Of a stretch of 64,000 nucleotides of DNA, positions 837 to 15,150 are shown one piece after another. The stretch is from an uncultured Acidobacteriaceae bacterium (GTDB taxonomy: Bacteria; Acidobacteriota; Terriglobia; Terriglobales; Acidobacteriaceae). Location: assembly GCA_963719575.1 (NCBI GenBank), contig CAVRCN010000004.1, forward strand, positions 226,875 to 290,874, in the 5' to 3' direction. How positions within the stretch are numbered: the first letter of the stretch is position 1; every line of letters begins with the position of its first letter. The position numbers and the translations under genes were made by a program. Below the pieces are notes generated by a model that saw nothing but the letters and a program-made list of their open reading frames with translations, did no database searches and had not been told where the DNA came from.

Positions 837-3800
837 ATGGAGACTATTTTCCTAATGCGCGTTGACTCGCACAGATCTCGCACCTCCGAAGTCCGTCTCC
901 GGCGCGCGGCTTCGTTGCTGCTTCTCGCAAGCATCGCCATCGTGCTCTCCGGTTGCCATTCCGGCCCCAGGCTTCCTGAGAAAGGATCCAAAGCCTACGC
1001 CAATGTTGTATCGGCATTCTATGTAGGTCTGGCGGCTCTACAGGTGGGCGATGACGTTCACGCCGAGAGCAAACTTTCTGAAGTAACTCAACTCGTGCCC
1101 AGCGAACCAGCGGGATGGGCGAATTGGGGAGTGCTGGCATTGCGTCAGAGGAACTATGGCGCGGCGGCGTACCGGCTCGAACGGGCGCGCGATCTGGCGC
1201 CACACAACGATCACATCTACGATTTACTGGGAATTCTTGAAAGCGATCGTGGCCATTCCGCGGAAGCCATCGCCAGCCTGCGGAAAGCGGTGGACCTGAA
1301 TCCGAAGAATCTGCGGGCAGCTTATGCGCTTGCAGAAGAAATCGAGCGGCAGGGCGATCCCAACAGCCAGGTGGAGTTTCAGAAAGTGATGCAGAAGATT
1401 CTGGCCGCGCAGCCAGACAATCTGGCCGCGTTGCTGGAGCTTGCCCGTGTTGCCGCAAAACGGGGCGATGCGCGCACACTGAAGTCGGCCGTAGCGCAGA
1501 TCGGCGCGCAATCCTCCACATGGCCTGCGGAAGTAAAGCAACAGCTCGCGGCAGTGCAAGCTGCGGAAGCCGGCACCGATTTACGCGCGGCCGCGACCCG
1601 AACCACTTTCCTGCGCAACGTGCTCATGCGCGTTCCCGAGTACCGCCAAAGTCTCTCCCTCATCAAGGCCCCCGCTGGTGAAGAAGCGCAGCCCTTCACT
1701 CATTTCGTGCGATTGGAATCTCCCGTGTTCAAGCCCGCGCCGGCAGACACGGCCATCCAATTCGCCCCTCAGCCGGTGGCGGATGCCGGCAATCGTCACT
1801 GGAATTGGATTGGAGCCATTCAACTCGGCAGCGCAGGTGCGCCTGTGATCGCTGAAGCCGACGGCCGCGAAGTGCGCCTGTCCACCGGCGCCACTCTTCC
1901 CTTCCCCGGCGGACCATCCCATATTCCGCCCACGCCTGAGGGCATTCTGCAAGTCGATCTCAACTACGACTTCAAAACTGATCTGGTGCTGGCGGGCGCG
2001 GGCGGCGTCCGTTTGTTTCGCCAGGATAGCCCGAGCGCATTCACCGACGTAACCACGCAGACCAGGTTACCGAAGCCGGTCACGAATGCCCGCTATACCG
2101 GCGCCTGGGCGGTTGACATTGAAGCGGACGGCGATCTCGATATCGTGCTGGGCGCGAACGAGGGATTACCGGTCGTGCTGAGAAACAATGGCGACGACAC
2201 ATTTCTGCCGATTCACCCTTTTACCGGAATCTCAGGCGTGCGCGGATTTGCCTGGGCTGATCTTGATGGCGACGGCAATCCCGACGCCGCCATCATCGAC
2301 AGTGTGGGACACCTTCACGTCTTTATGAATGAACGCCAGGGCCAGTTCCGGGAGCGCGCGCTGCCTGCTGGTCTGCCCGTCGTGAAGGCAATTGCAGTCG
2401 CTGATGCCAACAACGACGGAGTGCTCGATTTGTTGGCGGTGCAGGCGGATGGCGCCATCCTCCGAATTTCTGACAAGAACGATGGAGAAAGCTGGGAGAC
2501 GGCGGAGATTGCGAGGGTCCCGGACGCGCCCACAAATCTCGCGGGCGATGTGCACCTGCGCGTGGCTGATCTCGATAATAACGGAGCGCTCGATCTGCTT
2601 CTGGCTCCCACGGCACAGGCTTCCAATTCCAGCGCAGCCGGCGCGCTGATTTGGCTGGGCGACGACAATGGCAAATTCGTCTTGCTGGACCATCCCACGG
2701 GGCCGGCGCTGGTGTTTGCCGTGGCCGATTTGCTTGGAAACGGCAAGCTCGACCTGCTGGGTCTTTCCGCCGATGGACAAGCGGCGGAGGCCATAAATCA
2801 CGGATCGAAACATTATCACTGGCAAGTGGTCCGGCCGCACGCCGTACAAGCTGTGGGCGACCAGCGCATCAACCCGTTTGGTGTTGGCGGCGAGATTGAG
2901 GTTCGCTCCGGCCTGCTGGTACAGAAACAACCCATCACTGGCCCGCAACTTCATTTCGGTCTGGGTGACCAAACCGAAGCAGACGTCGTGCGCGTCGTTT
3001 GGCCGAACGGAACTGTTCGCGCCGAATTCGGAGTAAAAGCGGACATGGAGATTGTGACCGAGCAACGCCTGAAGGCGTCCTGCCCGTTCCTCTTCGCATA
3101 CAACGGGAAGCAGATGGAGTTCGTGAAAGACGCGGTACCCTGGGGCTCCGCAATCGGTTTGCGCATCAACACGCTTGGCTCCGCGCAAATCGCGGCGACC
3201 GGCGAATGGTACAAAATTGGCCGTGACCAGCTCGTGCCGCACGACGGCTATTACGACCTGCGCATCACGGCGGAATTGTGGGAAGTTTATTACTACGACT
3301 ATCTCGCGCTCATGGCGGTGGATCATCCCGTGGGCACGGAGATTTTTGTCGACGAGCGTTTCGTGATTCCGCCGTTGAAGCTTGGCCTCACCACCGTGAA
3401 CACGCCGCACAAGATTGCGCGGGCCATTGACGATACTGGCCACGATGTTACCGACATTGTCAGCACGCTCGACGGCAAAGCCCTTGCCAGCTTTGGCCGA
3501 GGCCAGTATCAGGGCATCACGCGCGATCACTATCTCGAAGTCGATCTCGGCGACGACGCGCCGAAAAGTGGTCCGCTGTATCTGATTGCGCAGGGATCGA
3601 TTCACGACACCGAGTCCTCGGTGAACGTAGCGATTACTCAGGGCACCCGCTGGCGCGCCCACGGGTTGAGTGTGGAAGTCCCGGACGGACACGGCGGCTG
3701 GGTTACCGCTCAGGATAATCTGGGTTTCCCGGCCGGCCGCAAGAAGACGATTCTTTTCAATCTGACGAACGTCTTTCGGCCCGGAACTCCGCGCCGCGTG

Positions 3801-4415
3801 CGTATCCGAACCAACCTGGAAATTTACTGGGATGCGATTCACTGGGCGCAGGGCGCGCCGGATGCGCCGCTGAAAACCGTGACTCTGAATCCCACCGTGG
3901 CCGATCTGCATTATCGCGGATATTCCGTCATGCACATGCCCGGAGCCGCGCGCGCGCCCGAGGTTCCCGATTACAACCGGCTTGAAGGGACCAAACAGCG
4001 TTGGCGCGATCTCATCGGCTACTACACCCGTTATGGCGACGTCCGCGAACTCGTTGACCGCATCGACGATCGTTACGTGATCGTAAATTCCGGCGACGAG
4101 TTGTCGCTGCGCTTTGCCGAGCAGCCACCTCCACCCGCAGGCTGGGTGCGCGATTTTGTCATCGTCGGCGACGGCTGGATCAAAGACGGCGACTACAATT
4201 CTACTTTCTCGAAAACCGTGCTGCCTCTGCCCTATCACGCGAAAAATGAATACACGACGCGCCCCCGCAGCCTTGAGGACGAGTGGGTCTACCGGCAACA
4301 TTCCGACGACTGGAAAACTTACCACACGCGCTATGTCACTCCTGAAGTCTTCAGGAACGCATTAAGGGATGAATCCGGCAGCGATGAAACCGGCAGGAGT
4401 GCAATCGGGAAATGA
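837..4415 (+). CDS. TPR + FG-GAP/VCBS repeat + ASPIC/UnbV lipoprotein (CRTAC1-like) with long C-terminal extension
   Basis: 1192-aa ORF with lipobox IVLSGC and N-terminal TPR-like helices. Repeated DxDxDGxxD motifs (VDIEADGDLDIVLG, ADLDGDGNPDAAI, ADANNDGVLDLLA, ADLDNNGALDLL). UnbV-like LHFGLGDQTEADVVRVVWPNG. Confidence 0.8.
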   Translation: METIFLMRVDSHRSRTSEVRLRRAASLLLLASIAIVLSGCHSGPRLPEKGSKAYANVVSAFYVGLAALQVGDDVHAESKLSEVTQLVPSEPAGWANWGVLALRQRNYGAAAYRLERARDLAPHNDHIYDLLGILESDRGHSAEAIASLRKAVDLNPKNLRAAYALAEEIERQGDPNSQVEFQKVMQKILAAQPDNLAALLELARVAAKRGDARTLKSAVAQIGAQSSTWPAEVKQQLAAVQAAEAGTDLRAAATRTTFLRNVLMRVPEYRQSLSLIKAPAGEEAQPFTHFVRLESPVFKPAPADTAIQFAPQPVADAGNRHWNWIGAIQLGSAGAPVIAEADGREVRLSTGATLPFPGGPSHIPPTPEGILQVDLNYDFKTDLVLAGAGGVRLFRQDSPSAFTDVTTQTRLPKPVTNARYTGAWAVDIEADGDLDIVLGANEGLPVVLRNNGDDTFLPIHPFTGISGVRGFAWADLDGDGNPDAAIIDSVGHLHVFMNERQGQFRERALPAGLPVVKAIAVADANNDGVLDLLAVQADGAILRISDKNDGESWETAEIARVPDAPTNLAGDVHLRVADLDNNGALDLLLAPTAQASNSSAAGALIWLGDDNGKFVLLDHPTGPALVFAVADLLGNGKLDLLGLSADGQAAEAINHGSKHYHWQVVRPHAVQAVGDQRINPFGVGGEIEVRSGLLVQKQPITGPQLHFGLGDQTEADVVRVVWPNGTVRAEFGVKADMEIVTEQRLKASCPFLFAYNGKQMEFVKDAVPWGSAIGLRINTLGSAQIAATGEWYKIGRDQLVPHDGYYDLRITAELWEVYYYDYLALMAVDHPVGTEIFVDERFVIPPLKLGLTTVNTPHKIARAIDDTGHDVTDIVSTLDGKALASFGRGQYQGITRDHYLEVDLGDDAPKSGPLYLIAQGSIHDTESSVNVAITQGTRWRAHGLSVEVPDGHGGWVTAQDNLGFPAGRKKTILFNLTNVFRPGTPRRVRIRTNLEIYWDAIHWAQGAPDAPLKTVTLNPTVADLHYRGYSVMHMPGAARAPEVPDYNRLEGTKQRWRDLIGYYTRYGDVRELVDRIDDRYVIVNSGDELSLRFAEQPPPPAGWVRDFVIVGDGWIKDGDYNSTFSKTVLPLPYHAKNEYTTRPRSLEDEWVYRQHSDDWKTYHTRYVTPEVFRNALRDESGSDETGRSAIGK

Positions 4416-6208
4416 CCCGCAACCGGATCGCTAGAGTGTTTCTGAGCCTCTTCTTTATAGCGCTGTTGGCTACTCCTTTCGTCATGAAGCGGATCTCGGA
4501 GGGTCGCGACGCCGACAGATCAAAGGCTGACGCAAAGACCGCGCTGGCTCGACACGGCTTTTATCTGGAAGAAGTCTCCCATGCGGCCGGTATTAATTTT
4601 ATCCATCAGTCTCCCAAGCTCGATCCCAAGCTGGATCCCATCATGCCGGAAGTTGCCTCCATGGGGGCATCCGTGTCGATCGTCGATTTCGATCGCGACG
4701 GCTGGCCTGACATCTATGTGACGAACAGCGCCATCGGCAGCAAGAACGCACTCTATCGCAACATGCATGACGGCACTTTTAAAGACGTGGCCGGCGAACT
4801 AGGCATTGCCGACGTCAACCAGCCCGGCACCGGAGTTTCCACCGGCGCGGTTTGGGGCGACTACGACAATGACGGATACGAAGATTTGTTCCTGATCAAG
4901 TGGGGCCGTCCCGAGTTGTTTCACAACAACCAGGGTCACGGCTTTACGCGCGTCACCGAGCAGGCAGGTCTGCCCCCGTGGATCAACGCGAACACAGCCA
5001 TCTGGTTCGACTACGACGGTGACGGACTCCTCGATCTTTTCGTCGGCGGCTATTATTCCGAAGATATCGACCTTTGGCATCTCACCACAACGCGCATCAT
5101 GCCTGACAGTTTTGAATACGCAAAGAATGGAGGCCGCAAATATTTATTCCACAATCTTGGCAACGGCAAATTCGAAGAGGTCAGCGCCAAGGTCGGCATC
5201 AACAGTCGCCGCTGGGCATTGGCCGCCGCCGCCGCGGATTTGCGCGGAACTGGACATCCGGATTTGTTTGTCGCAAACGATTACGGAGTGTCCGAACTCT
5301 ATTTCAATGACGGCAAGCGATTCCACGAGGTCGGCCAACAGACGGGCGTCGGCTTCGCCCCCAAAAGCGGTATGAATGCTGCCTTTGGCGATATTCTCAA
5401 TCAGGGCAGGTACGCCGTTTACGTTTCCAATATTTCGGAGGACGGGATCCTCATCCAGGGAAATAATTTATGGGTGCCGGAGGAAGGCACTGCGGGCGAT
5501 GCCGTCAAGTATCAGAACCTGGCCCGAGACTTTGGCGTAGAGCTCGGCGGATGGAGTTTTGGCGCGCAGTTCGGTGATCTGAATAACGACGGAACACTCG
5601 ACCTGTATCTGACGAATGGCTACATCTCGCTCGACCGAAATCGAAGTTACTGGTATGACTTTTCGAAAGTGGCTGGTGGAAACAGCACCATCATCGGCGA
5701 CGCGAAAAACTGGCCGGCGTTTGACGGACGCAGTTTGTCAGGCTATCAAAGCAAAAGAGTCTGGCTCAACGACGGCGCCGGCAAGTTCGTCGATGTCGCC
5801 CAGGCCGTGGGCGTGACCGACATCTACGATGGACGTTCCGTTGCCCTGGTCGATTTGTGGAATCGCGGTGTGCTCAACGTCGTTGTTGCCAACCAGAATG
5901 GACCGTTGCTCCTTTACAAGAATACGGTCGCGCCCCAGAACGAGTGGATGGAATTCGAGTTGGAAGGAACAACCAGTAACCGCAGCGCGATCGGCGCCCA
6001 AGTCACATTATTTTGGAACGGTCAAAAGCAGGTGCAGGAGGTTTCCGGCGGCAGCGGTTTCGCCGCGGAAAATGACCGGCGCCTGCATTTCGGTCTGGGC
6101 GCAAACCCACAGATCGACAAGGTCATAATTCGCTGGCCCTCCGGCAAACTTCAAACCATCGACAAGCCGGCACCGAATCAGCTGCATAAGATGAAGGAGC
6201 CCGCATGA
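4412..6208 (+). CDS. CRTAC1 family protein (FG-GAP/VCBS repeats + ASPIC/UnbV), N-terminal membrane anchor
   Basis: ATGA overlap with the upstream stop. Motifs VDFDRDGWPDIYV, GDYDNDGYEDLFL, FDYDGDGLLDLFV, GDLNNDGTLDLYL. C-terminal RSAIGAQVTLF...LHFGLG...IRWPSG. Confidence 0.85.
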   Translation: MTRNRIARVFLSLFFIALLATPFVMKRISEGRDADRSKADAKTALARHGFYLEEVSHAAGINFIHQSPKLDPKLDPIMPEVASMGASVSIVDFDRDGWPDIYVTNSAIGSKNALYRNMHDGTFKDVAGELGIADVNQPGTGVSTGAVWGDYDNDGYEDLFLIKWGRPELFHNNQGHGFTRVTEQAGLPPWINANTAIWFDYDGDGLLDLFVGGYYSEDIDLWHLTTTRIMPDSFEYAKNGGRKYLFHNLGNGKFEEVSAKVGINSRRWALAAAAADLRGTGHPDLFVANDYGVSELYFNDGKRFHEVGQQTGVGFAPKSGMNAAFGDILNQGRYAVYVSNISEDGILIQGNNLWVPEEGTAGDAVKYQNLARDFGVELGGWSFGAQFGDLNNDGTLDLYLTNGYISLDRNRSYWYDFSKVAGGNSTIIGDAKNWPAFDGRSLSGYQSKRVWLNDGAGKFVDVAQAVGVTDIYDGRSVALVDLWNRGVLNVVVANQNGPLLLYKNTVAPQNEWMEFELEGTTSNRSAIGAQVTLFWNGQKQVQEVSGGSGFAAENDRRLHFGLGANPQIDKVIIRWPSGKLQTIDKPAPNQLHKMKEPA

Positions 6209-7083
6209 GTCAGCCGACAAGCGCACCCGTCTTGCCTGCCCAATCACCGGGCCAGCCGCCTCATGCGTCCGGCCAGCGGAAGCCGCTGTTCAGTCTCGAC
6301 AACCGCTACATCGCTCCCGCTTTCATCACCTGCATTCTGCTGGCCGGGCATTTGTCGTTCGGCATTCTCGAGAGCTATCAGAAAACGCTGCTGGCGATCG
6401 TTACAAGTATTGTGCTCGAGCTCCTGCTCGGGCGAATTTTCTTTCAGAAGTGGCTACATCCCGCCAGCGCTTACATCACGGGCATCAGCGTCGGCATTCT
6501 GATTCGTTCGCCAGCGTTCTGGCCCTACGCACTGTGCAGCGCGATCTCCATCACATCCAAATATGTGTTGCGCGTGAAAGGACGCCATATCTGGAATCCC
6601 TCCAACTTCGGCATCTCTGTAATGCTGTTTCTGGCTGCCGAAACAGTGGCAACGCTGAGCATCCAGTGGGGCAACTATCTCTTGCCCATGCTGGTAATCT
6701 GGGCGCTTGGTTCCGTTATCATCTGGCGCTTGCGGCGCTTTCACATTACGGGAATCTATGTCGTATCGTTTATCGCGTTTGCATTCTTACGAAGCTGGAT
6801 GACGGGAAGCCCCTGGCAGTCGGAGATTGCGCCAATCACCGGCCCCATGTATCAACTGTTTATTTTCTTCATGATTACGGATCCAAAGACCACAGTCCGG
6901 TCGCGACGAGGCCAATGCGTGGTTGTTTTCCTGGTAGCGCTGTTTGAAATGGTGCTGCGCCTGTACCAGATTGTCTACGCGCCTTTTTATGCGCTCTTTA
7001 TTGTGGGCCCGGCCGCGATGCTGATCGAAATCTGGCTGGATTCGCGGCGCGCGAAATCTGCGAAGCTAACGGTGGCGCAGTGA
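6205..7083 (+). CDS. solo RnfD/NqrB-like polytopic membrane protein
   Basis: ATGA overlap with the upstream stop. Multiple TM segments. HIWNPSNFG (compare HxFNPA of RnfD/NqrB) and FFMITDPKTT (compare FxxTDPxT). No other Rnf/Nqr subunits nearby. Confidence 0.6.
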   Translation: MSQPTSAPVLPAQSPGQPPHASGQRKPLFSLDNRYIAPAFITCILLAGHLSFGILESYQKTLLAIVTSIVLELLLGRIFFQKWLHPASAYITGISVGILIRSPAFWPYALCSAISITSKYVLRVKGRHIWNPSNFGISVMLFLAAETVATLSIQWGNYLLPMLVIWALGSVIIWRLRRFHITGIYVVSFIAFAFLRSWMTGSPWQSEIAPITGPMYQLFIFFMITDPKTTVRSRRGQCVVVFLVALFEMVLRLYQIVYAPFYALFIVGPAAMLIEIWLDSRRAKSAKLTVAQ

Positions 7084-8963
7084 TTGCGGACACACGTGGA
7101 TTTACTTTTTTCGAGCTGCAACGTTTGTTCACTGGCGCACTGTTGCTGGCCGTCCTCGCCGGATTGGCGAGTTGCAAACCGGGGCAATCTACCACGCACC
7201 AAGCTTTTTCGCCGGCTACAACTCCTGTCCTCCCGCCGTCAGCGTCGGCATCCGCTGCTCCGCCCCCGGACACGCATGCCAAACCCGCCCGTCCTTCCGG
7301 TCCAATCGAGTTTACAGACGTAACCGCCCAGGCCGGCATTCACTTCAAACACAACAGCGGGGCTTTCGGAAAGAAATATCTTCCCGAGACCATGGGCAGC
7401 GGCGTCTGCTTTCTCGACTACGACAATGACGGCTGGCAGGATATTCTGCTGGTCAATTCAATGGACTGGCCCGGGCATAAGTCGGGCAAGTCGTTCCCTG
7501 CTCTCTATCACAACAATAAGGATGGCACGTTCACGGATGTCACGCGGCAAGCCGGCCTTGCGGTTGAAATGTACGGGCTCGGCTGCGCGGTTGGCGACTT
7601 TGACAATGACGGCAATGTAGATATTTACATTACCACCGTGGGTTCCAACCATCTCTTTCGTAATTTAGGGAATGGCAAGTTTGCCGACGTCACGGCCAAG
7701 GCAGGAGTGGCCGATCCAGGATTTTCCGCCAGCGCCGTGTGGTTTGATTACGACAACGACGGCAAGCTGGATCTTTTCGTCGCCCACTACATCGACTGGT
7801 CCATCGAGACCGATCAATACTGTTCGCTCGACAACAAAAACAAGTCTTATTGCACTCCGCAGAGATACAAAGGCCAAAGCTCCACTCTGTTTCACAACAA
7901 GGGCGACGGAACTTTCGAGAACGTAACGCGGCGCGCCGGTCTCTACGATCCCACCAGCAAATCCCTTGGCGTCGCGCTGCTGGATTATGACAACGATGGC
8001 TGGCTCGATCTTTTCGTTTCCAACGACACCGAACCCAACAAGCTCTATCGCAACAATCACGACGGCACCTTCACAGATGTCGCGGTACCCGCCGGCGTGG
8101 CCTACAGCGAAGCCGGCACCGTGCGCGCCGGCATGGGCACCGATGCGGCCGATTACGACAGCTCCGGATGGCAAAGCCTGGTGATCGGCAACTTCACCAA
8201 CGAGGGGATGGCCCTTTACCACAACGACGGTTCGGGCTTGTTCACGGACGAAGCCCCCGCAACTGGCCTCAAGCGGATCTCCACGCAGTCGCTCACCTTC
8301 GGCACTTTCTTTTTTGATTATGATCTCGATGGCCTGCCCGATATTCTCGCCGTCAACGGCCACGTCTCCGACGACATCAGCGTAGTGCAACCCAACGTCA
8401 AGTATGCGCAACCGCCTCATCTTTTTCGAAACCTGGGCAAGAACAAATTTGAAGAAGTGACAACGACACTCGGCCCCGCGCTGCAAAGGGCAATCGTGGG
8501 TCGAGGCGCGGCTTACGGAGATTTTGACAATGACGGCGATCTGGATTTATTGATCACCGCCAACAACGGGCCCGCACGCCTGCTGCGCAACGACAACGGA
8601 AACCAGAATGACATGCTGCGAGTGAAGACTGTGGGCACACGATCGAATCGCGATGGCATAGGCGCGAAGGTCACGGTCACTACCAACACGGGAGCTCGCC
8701 TTTTCGGCATGGTGAAAACAGGTTCAAGCTACTTATCTCAAAGCGAATTGCCGCTCACCTTCGGTCTCGGCAAACCGCAAGCTGGCAAAACTGTGAGATT
8801 GGAGATTGTTTGGCCCAGCGGCCAGAAGGATAGCTTTCCAGACGTTAAGCCGAATCACTTCATCACGGTGAAAGAAGGTATAGGAATTATTTCGGCCCAA
8901 CCCATTGTCTTCGCCAGAGGCGGGTCTCCTCAGTCTTCAACTTTGGCCTCCCCGCGAAAATAA
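7080..8963 (+). CDS. CRTAC1 family lipoprotein (FG-GAP/VCBS repeats + ASPIC/UnbV)
   Basis: GTGA overlap with the upstream stop. Lipobox LAGLASC. Motifs LDYDNDGWQDILL, GDFDNDGNVDIYI, FDYDNDGKLDLFV, LDYDNDGWLDLFV, GDFDNDGDLDLLI. C-terminal RDGIGAKVTV...LTFGLG...IVWPSG. Confidence 0.85.
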   Translation: MIADTRGFTFFELQRLFTGALLLAVLAGLASCKPGQSTTHQAFSPATTPVLPPSASASAAPPPDTHAKPARPSGPIEFTDVTAQAGIHFKHNSGAFGKKYLPETMGSGVCFLDYDNDGWQDILLVNSMDWPGHKSGKSFPALYHNNKDGTFTDVTRQAGLAVEMYGLGCAVGDFDNDGNVDIYITTVGSNHLFRNLGNGKFADVTAKAGVADPGFSASAVWFDYDNDGKLDLFVAHYIDWSIETDQYCSLDNKNKSYCTPQRYKGQSSTLFHNKGDGTFENVTRRAGLYDPTSKSLGVALLDYDNDGWLDLFVSNDTEPNKLYRNNHDGTFTDVAVPAGVAYSEAGTVRAGMGTDAADYDSSGWQSLVIGNFTNEGMALYHNDGSGLFTDEAPATGLKRISTQSLTFGTFFFDYDLDGLPDILAVNGHVSDDISVVQPNVKYAQPPHLFRNLGKNKFEEVTTTLGPALQRAIVGRGAAYGDFDNDGDLDLLITANNGPARLLRNDNGNQNDMLRVKTVGTRSNRDGIGAKVTVTTNTGARLFGMVKTGSSYLSQSELPLTFGLGKPQAGKTVRLEIVWPSGQKDSFPDVKPNHFITVKEGIGIISAQPIVFARGGSPQSSTLASPRK

Positions 8964-8994: not shown

Positions 8995-9207
8995 CTAGCT
9001 CAGTCTCGCGAGAATCTCTTTTTGATTCTCAACGATCGTCTGGAGGGCTCCCTGGTTCTTGAGAATTCCCGTCTGATTCTTCAGAATGCTTGCCTGATTC
9101 TTCTTGATGGCGGTCTGATTCGCACGAAGTTCAGCCTGATTGGCGATGATGGTCTTCTGATTCTTGATAATAGCCTTCTGATTCGCGATCACTTTGCTTT
9201 CTGACAT
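8995..9207 (-). CDS. 70-aa heptad-repeat (xNQxxIx)x7 coiled-coil-like mini-protein
   Basis: ATG start with GGAGG 11 nt upstream. Seven tandem heptads with invariant Asn-Gln. The variable codons differ between units, which suggests peptide-level constraint. Confidence 0.55.
   Translation of the reverse strand: MSESKVIANQKAIIKNQKTIIANQAELRANQTAIKKNQASILKNQTGILKNQGALQTIVENQKEILARLS
9052..9198. repeat. 21-bp periodic tandem array (coding repeat of the NQ-heptad ORF)
   Basis: CTGATT/CTGGTT recurs at 9052, 9073, 9094, 9115, 9136, 9157 and 9178, exactly 21 bp apart. Confidence 0.85.
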
Positions 9208-9377
9208 TGTGTAAATGGCCTCCAGCCGCGCGGCGTCGTAACTTCCGCCAACAACCGTCGATTATAAATCGGCGAAACACTGAGTCCCTAATGCGAAGGG
9301 AGTATCAGCCGTCGCGGTCGCATATTGTGGAAATACCGTACACGCAGAGCAAACACAAAAATCGACATCGAAGTCCG

Positions 9378-10160
9378 CTACTCAGCCAGAAACGCCCCGC
9401 CCCCAATCCAGAATTCCGCCAGCGACTTAAGATTTTTCTTGTAAGTGCGCGTCACCGTGTATTCCCTTCCGCCTTTCACTCGCAGGCCGTATTCTCCCGT
9501 CACATACGGTTTGATTTCTTCGACGAAAGAGGCATTCACCAGCACTGAGCGATGGATCCGAATAAACCCGTAGGGCCTGAGTTTTTCAGCCACTACCGAG
9601 ATGGAGTCGCGCAGCAGATACGATCCCGACTCCCTCTGCAGCAGCACATAATTGCCCTCCGCTTGCACGGCGACCACATCGCCGGGGTTGATGAACAGAA
9701 TCCTCCCCTTCGCTTTAATCGCAATTCTCGTATATTGCGGACGAGTCAGTTTCTGCAGCTGGGGCAAGGCTTCGATCAATTTCGCGGCGCGCTCGCCCTC
9801 GGCCCTGCGGAAAGCGCGGTCCAGGGCTTCGCCGATTCGTTCGTTGGAGAATGGTTTTAAGACGTAATCGACGGCGTGTTTCTCAAAAGCGGCGATCGCG
9901 TATTCATCGTGCGCGGTTACAAACACAACGGACGGCAGCGGCGGGTTTTTTCCTCTAAGCTGATCTACAAGTTCAGTTCCAGACAGCTCCGGCATATTGA
10001 TATCGAGTAGCAAAACATCATAGGACTCGGTCGCCAGTTTCTCGAGCGCCTCGATGGCATCGTTGGCCGAATCGAAATGCTCAACGTCCGCTCGTGCCGC
10101 CAGAATATTTGACAAGGCGGTTTGAGCCAGGGGCTCATCATCCACGATCAGCACGCGCAT
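9378..10160 (-). CDS. LytTR-family response regulator (REC + LytTR DNA-binding domain)
   Basis: MRVLIVDDEPLAQ...DVLLLDINMP receiver domain. C-terminal LytTR-like RIAIKAKGRILFINPGDVVAVQAEGNYV...IRIHRSVLVN. Start taken at ATG 10160, overlapping the kinase stop by 23 nt. Confidence 0.9.
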   Translation of the reverse strand: MRVLIVDDEPLAQTALSNILAARADVEHFDSANDAIEALEKLATESYDVLLLDINMPELSGTELVDQLRGKNPPLPSVVFVTAHDEYAIAAFEKHAVDYVLKPFSNERIGEALDRAFRRAEGERAAKLIEALPQLQKLTRPQYTRIAIKAKGRILFINPGDVVAVQAEGNYVLLQRESGSYLLRDSISVVAEKLRPYGFIRIHRSVLVNASFVEEIKPYVTGEYGLRVKGGREYTVTRTYKKNLKSLAEFWIGGGAFLAE

Positions 10161-11283
10161 GGGTTCCCTCTTCCATTTCCGTTCCCAACGGACCGCAGCC
10201 CAGGGCCGGCAGTCGTAATGTCGCGGTCGCCGAGCGGTCGTCAGTTTCGGCGAAAGTAAAACTCGCCTCGTCGGAATACAAATATCGAAGCCGTGCATCC
10301 GTGTTTCTCAACCCAACTCCCAAGCCTGGCGTGCGCTTGCCGCCGATGCTGTTGCGAATGCGGAGTTCAAGCGTTCCCGCTCGCTTCCTGGATGTAATCT
10401 CCACCCAGCCGCCGTCCCGCGAGCAGGCGATTCCGTGGCGCACGGCGTTTTCCACCAGCGGCTGCAGAATCAGTTGCGGAACCAGCGCCGGCCCCGTGTC
10501 CGGATCGATCGACCACTCCACGTTGAGACGAGTTCCCAGACGCATCGCTTCGAGATCAAGGTACTCTCGGACGAACTTCAGTTCCTCGCTCAGCGGAATC
10601 AAATCAGAACTGTTGTGCTCCAGCGTGCCCCGCAACAGGCTGGAAAGTTTAACCACCATGTTCTTGGCACTGCCCTTGTCGGTGTCGATCAACGTCGAAA
10701 TGCCATGCAACGTATTAAAAAGAAAATGAGGATGCAGCTGCATCTTCAGCGCCTGGAGCTCGCTGGCGGCCAGCGCCCTCTGAAATTCGACCTTTTCCAT
10801 CTCCTGCCTACGCAGCTTTTCGAAGTACTGGTAAGCATGGGCAGCCGCCACAATCGCGATGTACATGGTGATTTGATCGGCAAATCCCGAGTAGATCAGC
10901 TCCAGTGGTCCGTGCTTGGTCCGCGGGACATATTGCTGCAGCGCTGCGTCCCACGGCGGCAAAATGGTCCACCGAATACACGCATAAAGCAGCATGAACG
11001 GCGCAACGCCGAGGCAGTAGGCCAACACATACTGAAATCGATTTCGCGTAATGCCCATGTAACGACGAGCGAAATAGAAGATTGGCGGGGTTAACAGAGC
11101 AAAGGAAAATCCCCGTGACTCTGCCAGCAGCAGCATGTCGAACAGAGACGACTGTATGTTCATCGCCTTATCGAAGACACGGTACTGCACACCAGTCAGC
11201 AAAGAAAGCCCGCACCACACGGCAATCGAGAGGCCGTACGCGCGAGCCACTGGCCGAAATTCTTTCAGCTTCATCCTCGGCAT
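10138..11283 (-). CDS. LytS/YehU-type sensor histidine kinase (membrane N-terminus, His_kinase + HATPase)
   Basis: Several N-terminal TM segments. LHPHFLFNTLHGISTLI phosphoacceptor box. C-terminal LQPLVENAVRHG ATPase motif. Confidence 0.85.
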   Translation of the reverse strand: MPRMKLKEFRPVARAYGLSIAVWCGLSLLTGVQYRVFDKAMNIQSSLFDMLLLAESRGFSFALLTPPIFYFARRYMGITRNRFQYVLAYCLGVAPFMLLYACIRWTILPPWDAALQQYVPRTKHGPLELIYSGFADQITMYIAIVAAAHAYQYFEKLRRQEMEKVEFQRALAASELQALKMQLHPHFLFNTLHGISTLIDTDKGSAKNMVVKLSSLLRGTLEHNSSDLIPLSEELKFVREYLDLEAMRLGTRLNVEWSIDPDTGPALVPQLILQPLVENAVRHGIACSRDGGWVEITSRKRAGTLELRIRNSIGGKRTPGLGVGLRNTDARLRYLYSDEASFTFAETDDRSATATLRLPALGCGPLGTEMEEGTHARADRG

Positions 11284-11730
11284 CTTATTCCCCTCGCCGC
11301 GTTCCCTGACGATAGAGGTGCAGAACTACAAGCAAACGCTCCGAGCATACTTTCACGAGGTTTGGACCGTGGCAAACACAGACCAACTCTGAACTCGTCG
11401 GCAACCGCCCCGAAGTCCCGATGCGTGCCGCCGCGGATAACACAAAAACCTCTCCCGACCCGCAGCTCCACTCCGTCTTTTTGTAGACTTCTATGCGCAA
11501 AATTCCTTTTCTGGTAGATGCGCCGCAATTTCTACGAGCAGATCGATCCCATTGCCTCGAACCGCAAATCCTAATCCCGTTTGCCGGATGTTCAGATTTG
11601 TAGGACGGCACCTTCCTTTTGTCTTGCCGTAACTCGGCCCCCAGAACTCGCCGCGGGTGGTCCTGTGACTGCACTAGACACTGCTAGTCAGAACGGTGTC
11701 AGTCAGTGGACTTAACAAGGGAGACCAACA

Positions 11731-14700
11731 ATGCGATCGAACACATCCAGCAGGCTATTTGTTTTGGCAGCTGTGTTGACCCTTGCGCTACCGTGCGCGC
11801 TGTTGTCGCAGAGTGCAACCGAAGGCGCAGTCAGCGGAACGGTTACCGACGCATCGAACGCAGTTCTCGCCAATACTGCCGTCACGTTGAAAAACTTGGA
11901 CAAAGGTTACTCGCGCCAAACCACCACCAACGCGCAGGGCATTTACCAGTTTCCTCTGGCCGACCCAGGCAATTATGAAGTGGTCATCGCCGCCACCGGC
12001 TTCAAGCAATTTGGAGCCAAGGCCGCGGTGAACGTTGGTCAGGTAACCGTGGTCAATGCCAAGCTCGAAGTAGGTGCTGCCGGAACCACGGTGGAAGTCT
12101 CCGCCTCAGCCCCGCTCATGGATACGGAAGCCGCCGACATGTCCACCTCTTTTGATAGCAATCTGGTCCAAAACCTGCCCAACGGCGGTAACGACCTGAC
12201 CGCCGTCGCCTATACCGCGCCGGGAGTCGTCATGAACAGTGGCGGCATGTACGGCAACTTCACCGCGAATGGTCTGCCCGCCACCTCAAACGTGTTCACG
12301 GTGGACGGCGAAAATCAAATGGACCCGTTCCTCAACCTGAACAACTCTGGTCCCACCAACCTGATGCTGGGCAAGAACAGCATCGACGAAGCCACCGTCG
12401 TCACCAACGCCTATTCCGGCCAATACGGTCAACAAGCCGGAGCTCAGGTCAACCTGGTGAGCAAGGGCGGCACCAACAACTACCACGGCAACGTGCAATA
12501 CCAGTGGACCGGGCGCCTTCTGGATGCAAACGACTGGTTCAACACATTCTTTCAGCCACAGCAGCCTCGTCCATTCGCCAACAATAACCAGTGGGCGGCT
12601 TCTTTCGGCGGACCCATCAAGAAGGACAAAACTTTCTTCTTTGTCGACACCGAAGGCATTCGTTACATTGTCCCGTCGACAACCACCGTCTACACTCCCA
12701 CAGCTGCGTTTTTGGCTGACACACTGAACATCGGCCTTGCTGGAGCATCTGCCAACACGATCGCGACCTACACCAAGGCATCCACAATTTGGCAGGCCGC
12801 TCCCGGCTTCAAGAACGGCGCTGCGATCGCGGCGAGCCAAAGCTGCGTCGACCCACTCACCGGGCTGCAAATCGATAACGGCCCAACCGCAACCGCCACC
12901 GCCGGCTGCTTGCAGTCGTACAGCGCGAGCCCAGCCCTGCCCGCGAAAGAGACGCTGCTGATCGGCCGTTTCGATCAGAACTTCGGCACCAATGACCGCC
13001 TGTTCTTCCGTTTTGACATCGACACCGGCACTCAGGCCACTTACGCGGACCCGATCGATCCCTCAGCTTTTTCCGCCGCGAGTTACCAGCCGGAATACAA
13101 CAACAGCCTGAACTGGTCGCATACTTTTAGCGGCACTGCCACCAACCAGTTCGTCGCTGCCGTCAGCTACTATCGCGCGATTTTCATCGAGAACACCAAC
13201 CAGGCCACCTCGCCCTTTCCTTACTCGATGTTTGTCGGCACGACCGTCGGCGTCTCCAGCCCTTTTGGGCTGCCTTCCGCCACCGGTCTGAACGCCGAAA
13301 ACTTTGCATTCCCGCAAGGCCGCAACGTCACACAATCGCAACTAGTCGACGATTTCGCCAAGACCTTCGGCCGCCACAGCATGAAAGTCGGCGTCAACTT
13401 CCGGCGCTATGACATCACCAACTATGACGCTTCTGAATTAGTGACTCCGTTGGTCTATTCCGGACTCGGCGATTTCTTTAGCGGCAACGCGTCCATCTAC
13501 GCGCAGAACAATCCGCTTCATCCCACCGCACCCATGAACACCGGCGGTCTCGGCGTTTACGCCCAGGACGAATGGGCCGTCATGTCACGACTCAAGCTGA
13601 CGTTTGCCCTGCGCGCGGAGCATAATTTCAATCCCACCTGCGATATCAACTGCTTCACCTTGCCCAGCGCGCCGTTTTCGCAAATCAAGACGCAAGGTGT
13701 AAACATCCCTTACGACCAGGCGCTGCTCACCGGACGAAAAGATGCGTTCGGCTCCGTGGACAGCATCAATTTCGCTCCGCGCTTTGGCTTTACCTGGTCG
13801 CCGCGAGCCGACAGCAAGACTGTCGTCAGCGGCGGCTTCGGAATCTTCTATGATGCGTTCCCGGCGTTTATCACCGACTCGTTCGTCAACCTCCCCTACC
13901 TCGTGGGAGTAGATCTGTTCGGTCCAGACATCGGAGGCGGACCCGTGGCTTGGGGTGATTCGGCCGGCGCTGCCGCTACCGTAACCAATACCGCAAATAC
14001 CATTCGCAACGGAAACGCTGCGCTCGGAATTCCCTCCCTCACCAACGGCCTGACGGTGAACCAGCTTCTGGCCGCCGGCGGCGCGCAGCCAAACGTTACC
14101 GGGTTCCCGACCAAGCTGCGCACGCCGCAATACCAGGAATGGAACCTCCAGGTGCAAGAGGCCATCGACAGCAAAAGCAAAATCACCATCGCCTATGTGG
14201 GAAGCCATGGCTACCACGAGCCCTACCCCAACAACACGCTGAACGCAAGCACGGCCAGTGTCCCCGGCTTCGGCCCGCAGATCACCGGCTACGCCACCAC
14301 CACGCCCGATCCCCGCTTCGGCACGTTTACCGAGTGGAATTCCGGAGCCGTATCCAACAACAACGAAATGACCGCCACCTTCACTCGCCGCCTAGGAGCC
14401 GGCTTCGTGCTGAACTCCAACTTCACCTGGGCGCACACGCTCGACGAAATCTCCAACGGATCGCTCCTGCCCTCAAGCACCAGCGCCATCCAGGGGCAAA
14501 TCAACCCGCTCAACTTCCGGGCCAACAATTACGGCAATGCCGATTACGACATTCGTCACAGCTTCAACGCAAACTACGTTTGGACCGAGCCGTTCCACTT
14601 CCAGAACCGTGCCATGAGCGGCATCCTGGGCGGCTGGATTCTCTCCGAGAACTTCATCGCCCGCACCGGCCTGCCTTACACGGTCACCGACGGCACCACC

Positions 14701-15150
14701 TCGATCACCAACGGCGGCACGGCCACCCCCGCTCAGCTGACCAGCCTGAACGCTTCGCAAAACTGCGTGAACGGGTACAGCACGTGTTTCAATTCCGCCG
14801 ACTTTGCCAGCGCCAATAACTTAGGGCTATTCCCAACCCAAATGCGCAACCAGTTCCGCGGGCCCGGATTCTTCGACTCGGACTTCACCGTCGGGAAGAA
14901 CTTCCACGCCACCGAGCGTGTGAAGATTACGGTTGGTGCAAACATCTACAACATCTTCAACCATCCCAATTTCCAAAACCCGAACAAGAACTGGACGCCC
15001 GGCTGTTCCACCATTCCAGCCGGGTCGCAGCAGGCCAGCTGCGGCAACATCACGGGACAAGCCGCACCGCCAACCGGACCTTACGGCTCGTTCTTTAACG
15101 GCCTCCCCGCCGGGCGCGAGGGGCAGCTTCAGGCTAAAATAGTTTTCTGA
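11731..15150 (+). CDS. TonB-dependent receptor with N-terminal carboxypeptidase-regulatory-like domain
   Basis: 1139 aa with signal peptide. GAVSGTVTDASNAVLANTAVTLKN...GIYQFPLADPGNYEVVI CarboxypepD_reg-like start. C-terminal aromatic residue (..AKIVF). AAGGGA RBS upstream. Confidence 0.85.
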   Translation: MRSNTSSRLFVLAAVLTLALPCALLSQSATEGAVSGTVTDASNAVLANTAVTLKNLDKGYSRQTTTNAQGIYQFPLADPGNYEVVIAATGFKQFGAKAAVNVGQVTVVNAKLEVGAAGTTVEVSASAPLMDTEAADMSTSFDSNLVQNLPNGGNDLTAVAYTAPGVVMNSGGMYGNFTANGLPATSNVFTVDGENQMDPFLNLNNSGPTNLMLGKNSIDEATVVTNAYSGQYGQQAGAQVNLVSKGGTNNYHGNVQYQWTGRLLDANDWFNTFFQPQQPRPFANNNQWAASFGGPIKKDKTFFFVDTEGIRYIVPSTTTVYTPTAAFLADTLNIGLAGASANTIATYTKASTIWQAAPGFKNGAAIAASQSCVDPLTGLQIDNGPTATATAGCLQSYSASPALPAKETLLIGRFDQNFGTNDRLFFRFDIDTGTQATYADPIDPSAFSAASYQPEYNNSLNWSHTFSGTATNQFVAAVSYYRAIFIENTNQATSPFPYSMFVGTTVGVSSPFGLPSATGLNAENFAFPQGRNVTQSQLVDDFAKTFGRHSMKVGVNFRRYDITNYDASELVTPLVYSGLGDFFSGNASIYAQNNPLHPTAPMNTGGLGVYAQDEWAVMSRLKLTFALRAEHNFNPTCDINCFTLPSAPFSQIKTQGVNIPYDQALLTGRKDAFGSVDSINFAPRFGFTWSPRADSKTVVSGGFGIFYDAFPAFITDSFVNLPYLVGVDLFGPDIGGGPVAWGDSAGAAATVTNTANTIRNGNAALGIPSLTNGLTVNQLLAAGGAQPNVTGFPTKLRTPQYQEWNLQVQEAIDSKSKITIAYVGSHGYHEPYPNNTLNASTASVPGFGPQITGYATTTPDPRFGTFTEWNSGAVSNNNEMTATFTRRLGAGFVLNSNFTWAHTLDEISNGSLLPSSTSAIQGQINPLNFRANNYGNADYDIRHSFNANYVWTEPFHFQNRAMSGILGGWILSENFIARTGLPYTVTDGTTSITNGGTATPAQLTSLNASQNCVNGYSTCFNSADFASANNLGLFPTQMRNQFRGPGFFDSDFTVGKNFHATERVKITVGANIYNIFNHPNFQNPNKNWTPGCSTIPAGSQQASCGNITGQAAPPTGPYGSFFNGLPAGREGQLQAKIVF

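Follow-up and report, generated by a model that had tools for sequence, protein, structure and literature searches.

What is the role of a small gene that encodes a run of near-identical heptads, and is it controlled by the LytS/LytTR regulatory pair beside it? The question is raised by a 64,000-nucleotide stretch of contig CAVRCN010000004.1 (positions 226,875 to 290,874 of the forward strand; assembly GCA_963719575.1) from an uncultured Acidobacteriaceae bacterium. The whole stretch is referred to here as the window, and coordinates count from its first letter. An earlier note, made from the sequence alone, drew attention to a minus-strand gene for a mini-protein of consecutive [IVL]xxNQxx heptads, likened the heptads to the stalks of trimeric autotransporters and proposed that the gene is the output of the adjacent pair. 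The observation and the structural reading are sound, but the regulatory reading is not. The explanation favoured here, to which we give a little better than an even chance, is that the gene is autonomous and encodes a small, probably cytoplasmic, homo-oligomeric coiled coil (a trimer most likely), whose family is associated with FG-GAP/ASPIC genes and with an SsuA-like ATP-binding cassette (ABC) transporter.

The Mini-Protein Gene and its Coding Status

The mini-protein gene, called the NQ gene below, begins with an ATG at 9207-9205 of the minus strand, and its open reading frame (ORF), read from 9207 to 8995, translates as MSESKVIANQKAIIKNQKTIIANQAELRANQTAIKKNQASILKNQTGILKNQGALQTIVENQKEILARLS. 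This bears out the frame, the start codon, the GGAGG sequence 11 nt upstream and the peptide described previously. The product is predicted to be a basic protein of 7.7 kDa (pI 10.3, net charge +7). Its Asn-Gln codon pairs, AATCAG or AACCAG (CTGATT or CTGGTT on the plus strand), lie at the seven positions originally listed (9052, 9073, 9094, 9115, 9136, 9157, and 9178), and Tandem Repeats Finder returns a period of 21 for the array. An eighth pair (AATCAA) follows at 9022-9027 after a step of 10 codons. A degenerate pattern of four NQ pairs plus Ile has one match in the window and none in 100 dinucleotide-preserving shuffles.

It is clear that the ORF is a true protein-coding gene and that purifying selection acts on it. 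The ratio of non-synonymous to synonymous substitution rates (dN/dS) is 0.06-0.16 in comparisons with eight relatives. Across the family, Asn is encoded by either of its synonymous codons (AAC 517, AAT 467), as is Gln (CAG 738, CAA 246), and the seven 21-bp units in the window have a pairwise DNA identity of only 60%, which is lowest at codon position 3 (52%). Together, the low dN/dS, the synonymous variation and the third-position divergence indicate selection on the peptide, as the earlier note had supposed. The spacing of the NQ pairs (7,7,7,7,7,7,10) is maintained across the family. Conservation starts exactly at M-S/A-E/D, the called N-terminal extensions of homologues are mutually unrelated, and homology upstream of the conserved Met and the Shine-Dalgarno sequence is soon lost among relatives. 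No relative that keeps the DNA period with a broken reading frame was seen among about 130 loci.

The array is also distinctive in composition. The hand-counted G+C content of about 47% over 9001-9180, which had looked low, comes to 47.2% when computed, against 58.9% for the whole window, and falls in the lowest 0.8% of 180-bp windows. The G+C content of the ORF at third codon positions (GC3) is 0.63, close to the 0.65-0.74 of neighbouring genes, whereas the values at first (GC1) and second (GC2) positions are low (0.46 and 0.30). Therefore, the dip reflects a composition rich in Asn, Lys, Ile, and Gln, not foreign DNA. Two further features of the locus can be recorded. Relatives end in ...L-S/N/K-K-stop, and at the site of their terminal Lys codon AAG the window has TAG, which makes its product 70 residues long and not 71 (site 8995-9000). 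On the plus strand, an antisense ORF of 60 codons is open through the array at 9022-9204, a shadow of the periodic coding sequence.

A Large Unannotated Family

The NQ gene of the window is a member of a large, unannotated family of soil bacteria, mainly Acidobacteriota. A protein search recovered 87 homologues, all "hypothetical" and with no Pfam domain except PF04012 (PspA/IM30-type) on one weak match (P0084). A profile search of 1.84 billion cluster representatives (clustered at 50% identity) matched 880 clusters at E<=1e-3 and, at the stricter E<=1e-10, 316, nearly all of them small proteins. At the DNA level, a pattern for the conserved 10-residue unit matched every known family locus and no unrelated sequence, and on metagenome contigs it added at least 120 further loci, mostly from soil and peat. 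The loci span a G+C content of 0.39-0.73. Among the matches listed, the taxa are Acidobacteriota/Terriglobia and also Armatimonas and Gemmataceae, with tailed variants in Bacteroidota. The exact 70-residue product is absent from a collection of 15 billion proteins. The earlier note could name no family for the protein, and this stands: scans with Pfam, NCBIfam, and PADLOC gave no credible match, 45 family members scanned with Pfam yielded no convincing family, and PHROGs gave a single short match that covers residues 6-26 (phrog_24169, of unknown function; E 1.7e-6).

Family members are 44-152 residues long and consist solely of NQ heptads and 10-residue units of the form NQxxL[D/N]xI[L/V]x, with a strongly conserved ILAxLKK motif at the C-terminus. 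Their lengths cluster at 50, 57, 63-64, and 70-71 residues, and this stepwise distribution indicates that whole heptads are gained and lost. Some members depart from the simple pattern. In Bacteroidota, L017 (Arcicella), L105, and L122 have five or six NQxxIxx heptads followed by a non-repetitive tail of about 50 residues, and these tailed variants may represent a related family that has acquired a further domain. In the high-G+C metagenome loci L318, L310, L284, and L289, members of 119-148 residues alternate 7- and 10-residue units (ANQAKIAGNQKKLDQVLANQ...), which yields a 17-residue super-period unusual for coiled coils. Long profile-matching proteins were considered as informative fusions and rejected, being eukaryotic or giant-virus low-complexity sequences, with the exception of one fibre protein (P0175) discussed below. 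A search of genome contigs with a DNA pattern of five NQ pairs yielded, among the matches listed, mostly unrelated perfect tandem repeats (L012, L014, L034, L087, and others). These have periods of 7 or 21 nt (NNQQPTT in cyanobacteria is an example), and many are interrupted by stops and thus are non-coding satellites.

Predicted Structure

An AlphaFold2 monomer model, with the family alignment as input, is a single unbroken helix from residue 3 to residue 69 with a predicted local distance difference test score (pLDDT) of 97.5. The sequence along this helix is highly regular. In 695 heptads from 114 unique family proteins, position d is Asn in 98% and His in 2%, position e is Gln in 100%, and position a is Ile in 93%. 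Position b is Leu in 51%, Ile in 9%, and Val in 6% (66% together), and positions f, g, and c are occupied by Lys, Ala, Thr, Ser, and Gly. The protein of the window has seven consecutive heptads of this kind. Asn and Gln make up 24% of residues, at fixed positions, and the median net charge of family proteins is +7. The register proposed in the earlier note, with I/L/V at a and Asn at d as in trimeric autotransporter stalks, fits these statistics, and Ile at a with Asn at d matches the published layers with Asn at position d (N@d layers).

An amphipathic helix of 67 residues with such a composition must oligomerise, and the predicted helix must accordingly self-associate into a coiled coil. By analogy with UspA1, SadA, and CpoB, the oligomer is most likely a parallel homotrimer, and we infer that its Asn layers bind an anion such as chloride, as they do in adhesin stalks. 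The protein is presumably cytoplasmic, because it has no signal peptide. Here too the earlier note was right: none of the 114 unique sequences has a hydrophobic N-terminal segment, with no hydrophobic run longer than 5 residues within the first 25. The hydrophobic b position hints at a wider interface, with higher-order bundling or a surface for binding a partner.

These elements can be put together in a working model. A small basic protein without a signal peptide would fold into one alpha-helix about 10 nm long, and the helices would self-associate, most likely as a parallel homotrimer with alternating layers of Ile at a and Asn at d along its core. Within each Asn triad a chloride or similar anion would be buried, in the manner of the N@d layers of trimeric autotransporter stalks. 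The conserved three-residue insertion near the C-terminus (NQxxLxxI[VIL]xNQ) would locally alter the supercoil. Leu or Ile at b in about two-thirds of heptads would form a semi-hydrophobic outer stripe, which might bind a partner or support higher-order bundling. The number of repeats changes by whole heptads. The family travels with the FG-GAP/ASPIC operon and the SsuA-like ABC transporter, not with LytTR systems, and the protein may work with this envelope and transport neighbourhood as a small oligomeric scaffold or regulator whose folding is possibly ion-dependent.

Neighbouring Genes

Synteny was surveyed in 133 non-redundant family loci, with neighbours clustered by blastp. One recurrent set consists of ASPIC genes, which lie near the NQ gene in 33 of the loci, the window included, in convergent, divergent or co-directional orientation. 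In the window they belong to a four-gene operon (837-8963) that is convergent with the NQ gene and has overlapping stop and start codons (Table 1). The same four-gene FG-GAP/ASPIC operon adjoins the NQ gene in L001-L004, L224, L312, and L323. The operon is kept at 85-92% identity in several metagenome contigs, and no function is known for this module. The second recurrent set is a NitT/TauT-type ABC transporter (an NMT1_2/SsuA-like binding protein, two permeases, and an ATPase), found near the NQ gene in 26 loci. At least one of the two sets was seen in 25 of the 48 loci that have 6 kb or more of flanking sequence, and in 14 of the 18 that have 9 kb or more.

The arrangement of the transporter genes varies. 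The NQ gene lies directly upstream of the transporter and co-directional with it in at least 11 loci, with gaps of -4 to about 600 bp, while it is divergent from the transporter 5' end in three loci and convergent in five. In L289 (G+C 0.73), the order is NQ gene, 69 bp, binding protein, permease/ATPase, and a TPR-FG-GAP-ASPIC gene, with domains confirmed by Pfam. In L309 (G+C 0.66), the NQ stop and the start of the binding-protein gene overlap, and in L270 (about 0.43 G+C) the gene immediately upstream of NQ is that of the binding protein. Both sets of neighbours recur in distant lineages, over a G+C range of 0.43-0.73. TonB-type receptors are far more numerous than ASPIC genes in Acidobacteria. 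Nevertheless, receptors of the CarboxypepD_reg/TonB type occur near the NQ gene in only 11 loci, which makes it unlikely that the ASPIC count is due to chance. Gene order thus provides moderate evidence for functional coupling of the NQ gene with its ASPIC and ABC neighbours.

Other genes recur around the family as well. The SsuA-like ABC operon is often accompanied by a 102-116-residue CxxC protein with a Tat signal, resembling HMA, CopZ, or MerP, and by DUF169 (L216, L005, L010, L229, and others). Further recurrent neighbours are a NapH/MauN-like ferredoxin membrane protein, a His-rich membrane protein, a Trp-halogenase-like flavoprotein, and CMD/AhpD-like proteins. The combined neighbours hint at redox or metal chemistry.

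Table 1. Features around the NQ gene, in window coordinates.
Feature	Position	Strand	Remarks
TPR+FG-GAP+UnbV_ASPIC gene	837-4415	plus	1192 aa; domain assignments
FG-GAP/ASPIC gene	4412-6208	plus	598 aa; domain assignments
RnfD/NqrB-like membrane protein gene	6205-7083	plus	292 aa; domain assignments
FG-GAP/ASPIC gene	7080-8963	plus	627 aa; domain assignments
NQ-heptad mini-protein gene	8995-9207	minus	70 aa; stop TAG 8995-8997; ORF list and homologues
Periodic core	9022-9183	minus	seven NQxx[I/L]xx heptads, 10-residue unit NQGALQTIVE and terminal NQKEIL
Spacer from LytTR gene stop to mini-protein ATG	9208-9377		170 bp
Shine-Dalgarno sequence GGAGG	9219-9223	minus	11 nt ahead of ATG; kept in all close relatives
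TATAAT hexamer	9261-9266	minus	candidate -10 box, lineage-specific; not called as full sigma-70 promoter
Response_reg+LytTR regulator gene	9378-~10163	minus	Pfam; neighbour in window lineage only
LytS-type histidine kinase gene (PF06580)	10138-11283	minus	Pfam; end overlaps regulator gene
CarboxypepD_reg/TonB-type outer-membrane protein gene	11731-15150	plus	1139 aa; divergent from kinase gene

Weighing the Favoured Explanation

Several points weigh against this explanation, and some of them concern the structure. On a wheel of 3.5 residues per turn, Ile lies midway between Asn (-51 degrees) and Gln (+51 degrees), and a register with Gln at a, Ile at d, and Leu at e fits equally well. The frequent Leu at b could widen the interface and give a different oligomer. 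The matches in PDB are weak (E 0.01-4), and scores of this kind are inflated by the composition of coiled coils. Protein and profile searches found the family and a weak profile match to CpoB/YbgF. Foldseek, which the earlier note had suggested, returned 0 matches in PDB with the single-helix model, a result that is uninformative for a lone helix.

Other points concern the neighbours. ASPIC and ABC genes are both absent from about half of the well-flanked loci (e.g., L006, L319, L239, L241, and L294), and one subfamily of 63 residues sits between DHQ synthase and other housekeeping genes. The window itself contains no SsuA-like ABC operon. Part of the association may be synteny inherited within Terriglobia. 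Finally, the neighbouring ORFs were self-called with a GC3-GC2 filter, although this filter recovers the real genes of the window.

What if the protein forms some other sort of coiled coil? A dimer, a tetramer, a larger bundle, or an antiparallel assembly is conceivable, perhaps in the register with Gln at a, and layers of Asn and anions would then not be its organising principle. This we regard as unlikely, though to be taken seriously. The symmetric position of Ile suits both registers, and two-thirds of the b positions are hydrophobic. In addition, the best profile match in PDB is not an adhesin but the N-terminal domain of CpoB/YbgF (2wz7/2xdj), with a borderline E of 0.011 and an hhalign probability of 76% over 32 columns, and the CpoB trimer dissociates upon TolA binding (PMC4458516). 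A variant of this idea is that the mini-protein might be a hetero-oligomerisation module for the TPR domain of the neighbouring ASPIC protein, just as CpoB swaps trimerisation for TolA binding. However, a membrane or signal segment is present at the N-terminus of the TPR-ASPIC protein and missing from the mini-protein, so the two may reside in different compartments. More generally, the near-invariance of Asn is what would be expected of a core position, and in UspA1 of Moraxella, IxxNQxx heptads have been seen directly with Asn at d and chloride. UspA1 holds eight Cl- ions, with chloride at every Asn at d (PMC2396876).

A more ambitious proposal goes further than the favoured homo-oligomer. 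It holds that the family is a hitherto unrecognised class of autonomous cytoplasmic coiled coils whose folding or assembly is brought about by anion binding, that each trimer stores or senses a column of 7-20 buried chloride or nitrate ions, and that it acts as a partner or regulator of the ASPIC and SsuA-like ABC module in soil bacteria. As a whole this seems rather improbable.

Relationship to the LytS/LytTR Pair

The identity of the pair is not in doubt. Pfam assigns the kinase to PF06580 and the regulator to Response_reg+LytTR, and the coordinates, the shared orientation and the distance of 170 bp to the NQ gene are as the earlier note had them. So too are the position of the spacer and of the TATAAT sequence within it. 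The proposal built on them was that the mini-protein is a dedicated output, effector or signalling peptide of LytS/LytTR, expressed from a LytTR-dependent promoter in the spacer. Co-orientation and proximity favour it, as do the TATAAT sequence, the fact that no terminator is predicted between the LytTR gene and the NQ gene (which leaves room for read-through), and the maintenance of the arrangement in L258.

However, synteny does not bear the proposal out: the array occurs independently of LytTR systems, an outcome that the earlier note had itself named as a refutation. A LytTR regulator adjoins the NQ gene in 2 of the 133 loci, the window and L258, and with regulators 94% identical these are essentially one lineage. 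Contigs annotated independently give the same picture, for close relatives of the NQ protein have something else upstream: a TonB-type receptor and a TPR gene for P0008 (83% identical; L001/L002), a divergent CMD/AhpD-like gene for P0011 (81% identical; L003/L004), and a divergent HisKA_3/GerE (NarL-type) two-component pair for P0012 (80% identical; L323). Alignment of the upstream regions tells the same story. The window and L258 have the whole spacer in common, TATAAT included, whereas the remaining close relatives have a different upstream block with TTGAC(G/A) and can be aligned to the window only from about 25 nt before the ATG, at the Shine-Dalgarno sequence. No acceptable -35 box was found for the TATAAT at 9261-9266. 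Nor does 9195-9400 contain direct repeats of the LytTR type (pairs of about 9-10 bp, spaced by about 21 bp); the only two repeats, spaced 118 and 54 bp apart, are at chance level.

Between the TonB-type receptor and the NQ gene lies a slot that is itself variable. It holds LytS/LytTR in the window and L258, HisKA_3 plus GerE in L323, a CMD/AhpD-like gene in L003, L311, and L312, and a TPR gene in L001. These contents suggest repeated gene turnover at this position. Since relatives lack LytTR, their upstream sequences are not homologous and direct repeats are missing, LytS/LytTR is best seen as an occupant of a variable slot beside an older, autonomous gene.

A comparison with LytTR-controlled peptide genes leads in the same direction. 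The Agr, ComCDE, and Blp/Pln systems also have a small ORF beside a histidine kinase/LytTR pair. Unlike them, the mini-protein locus has no leader-cleavage motif (no double-glycine leader) and lacks genes for processing or export as well as LytTR direct repeats, and the LytTR association is missing in 131 of 133 loci. The output-gene proposal is therefore highly doubtful. Read-through capture from the LytTR operon is possible in this one lineage, being conceivable because no terminator is predicted between the genes, but it would not be a property of the family. Judging from its position, the divergent CarboxypepD_reg/TonB-type gene is a more conventional candidate for a LytTR target. The 447-bp intergenic region between it and the kinase gene (11284-11730) yielded no direct repeats either.

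Remaining Alternatives

Could the NQ gene instead be a leader ORF whose translation responds to Asn/Gln-tRNA or nitrogen status and attenuates a downstream ABC transporter? The loci in which it lies directly ahead of the ABC operon, and its fixed load of Asn and Gln, would suit this idea. However, in many loci, the window among them, the gene is either unlinked to the ABC operon or lies convergent or divergent to it, its product is far longer than known leader peptides, Ile at a and the C-terminal motif are strongly conserved, and a helix is confidently predicted. We consider such a leader very unlikely.

The strict 21-bp period and the open antisense frame might suggest a non-coding satellite, or a regulatory DNA or RNA element with an incidental ORF, a suggestion that can practically be dismissed given the low dN/dS in the NQ frame, the dissimilar units and mixed codons described above, a start, stop and Shine-Dalgarno sequence kept in hundreds of loci across the whole G+C range of the family, and an Rfam search that gave no match to the array. 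Equally hard to credit is the idea that the gene was left over or broken off from a trimeric autotransporter adhesin or phage fibre gene, for despite the stalk-like heptads and the weak phrog_24169 match there is no head, anchor or signal sequence, and the start and stop are conserved under purifying selection across hundreds of independent loci. A phage origin was considered separately and rejected, since a scan of viral contigs with a 5xNQ-type pattern gave almost only AT-rich junk and essentially no family members.

Significance

Descriptions of N@d layers have until now come from inserts in giant surface fibres and from designed peptides. If found in nature, a protein composed solely of such layers would be a minimal model for coiled coils with a polar core. 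This family is abundant in soil metagenomes and evolves by gain and loss of whole heptads, and with it one could test directly whether folding in vivo is driven by ion binding. It also offers a handle on gene sets that are poorly understood and very common in Acidobacteriota, namely the FG-GAP/ASPIC (CRTAC1-like) operons and the SsuA-like ABC transporter with its HMA-like and DUF169 partners. A practical consequence concerns annotation, because hundreds of NQ genes are currently called with spurious N-terminal extensions or missed entirely.

Comparison with Known Coiled Coils

The structural motif is known. The free-standing protein made of N@d layers alone is undescribed in the databases and literature searched, where no account of such a family or of its gene neighbourhood was found. 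The N@d motif of adhesin stalks is said to have been defined as [IVL]xxN[TQ]xx by Hartmann et al. in 2009. The stalks of UspA1 and of SadA from Salmonella share with the NQ proteins a heptad in which a is beta-branched and hydrophobic, d is Asn, and e is Gln or a small polar residue, and both give weak sequence matches in PDB at E 0.3-0.4 (UspA1 6qp4, E 0.32; SadA 2wpq, with NTxxIxx heptads). Asn at d with Ile or Val at a constitutes a halide site in trimeric coiled coils (PMC12933892), and natural adhesin stalks can have long unbroken runs of N@d, with 37 of 40 heptads of this type in known examples (PMC13580157). NT and NQ heptads are mixed in P0175, a fibre protein of 1479 residues with a Peptidase_S74 domain.

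The differences are also considerable. Adhesin stalks are parts of huge secreted fibres with a signal peptide, heads, and a beta-barrel anchor, whereas in the mini-protein family the motif is the entire protein and there is no export signal. Indeed, none of the features of trimeric autotransporters (signal peptide, head or neck, YadA-type anchor) is found in the 70-residue protein, nor is any Pfam domain. Gln at e is invariant in the mini-proteins and mostly replaced by Thr in adhesins, and the hosts of the mini-proteins are Acidobacteriota and other soil phyla.

The N-terminal domain of CpoB/YbgF (2XDJ, 2WZ7; Pfam TolA_bind_tri) is likewise a short, polar, trimerising coiled coil. In this comparison the C-terminal segment ENQYQLNQVVERQKQILLQI aligns closely with KNQGALQTIVENQKEILARL, including the 10-residue spacing. 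CpoB has a C-terminal TPR domain, and the large protein neighbouring the mini-protein also has TPR repeats. However, CpoB is a periplasmic protein in which the coiled coil is fused to the TPR domain, its gene belongs to the tol-pal operon, and it lacks a regular run of NQ heptads. The mini-protein has none of that context, with no signal peptide, no fused TPR, and ASPIC, ABC-transporter or two-component genes as neighbours, and the TolA_bind_tri model matches 0 of 45 family members at E<=1. The matches to adhesin stalks and to CpoB are too weak for homology, and the likeness is one of analogy.

The closest counterparts in design are the NHCC and degNHCC peptides (TDENTKR repeats; Hartmann et al., 2026), in which adhesin-derived heptads with Asn at d coordinate chloride along the trimer axis (PMC13580157). 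These designs have no hydrophobic core residues and need GCN4 adaptors to fold (PMC13580157). The natural family, in contrast, keeps Ile at a and has conserved capping ends of its own.

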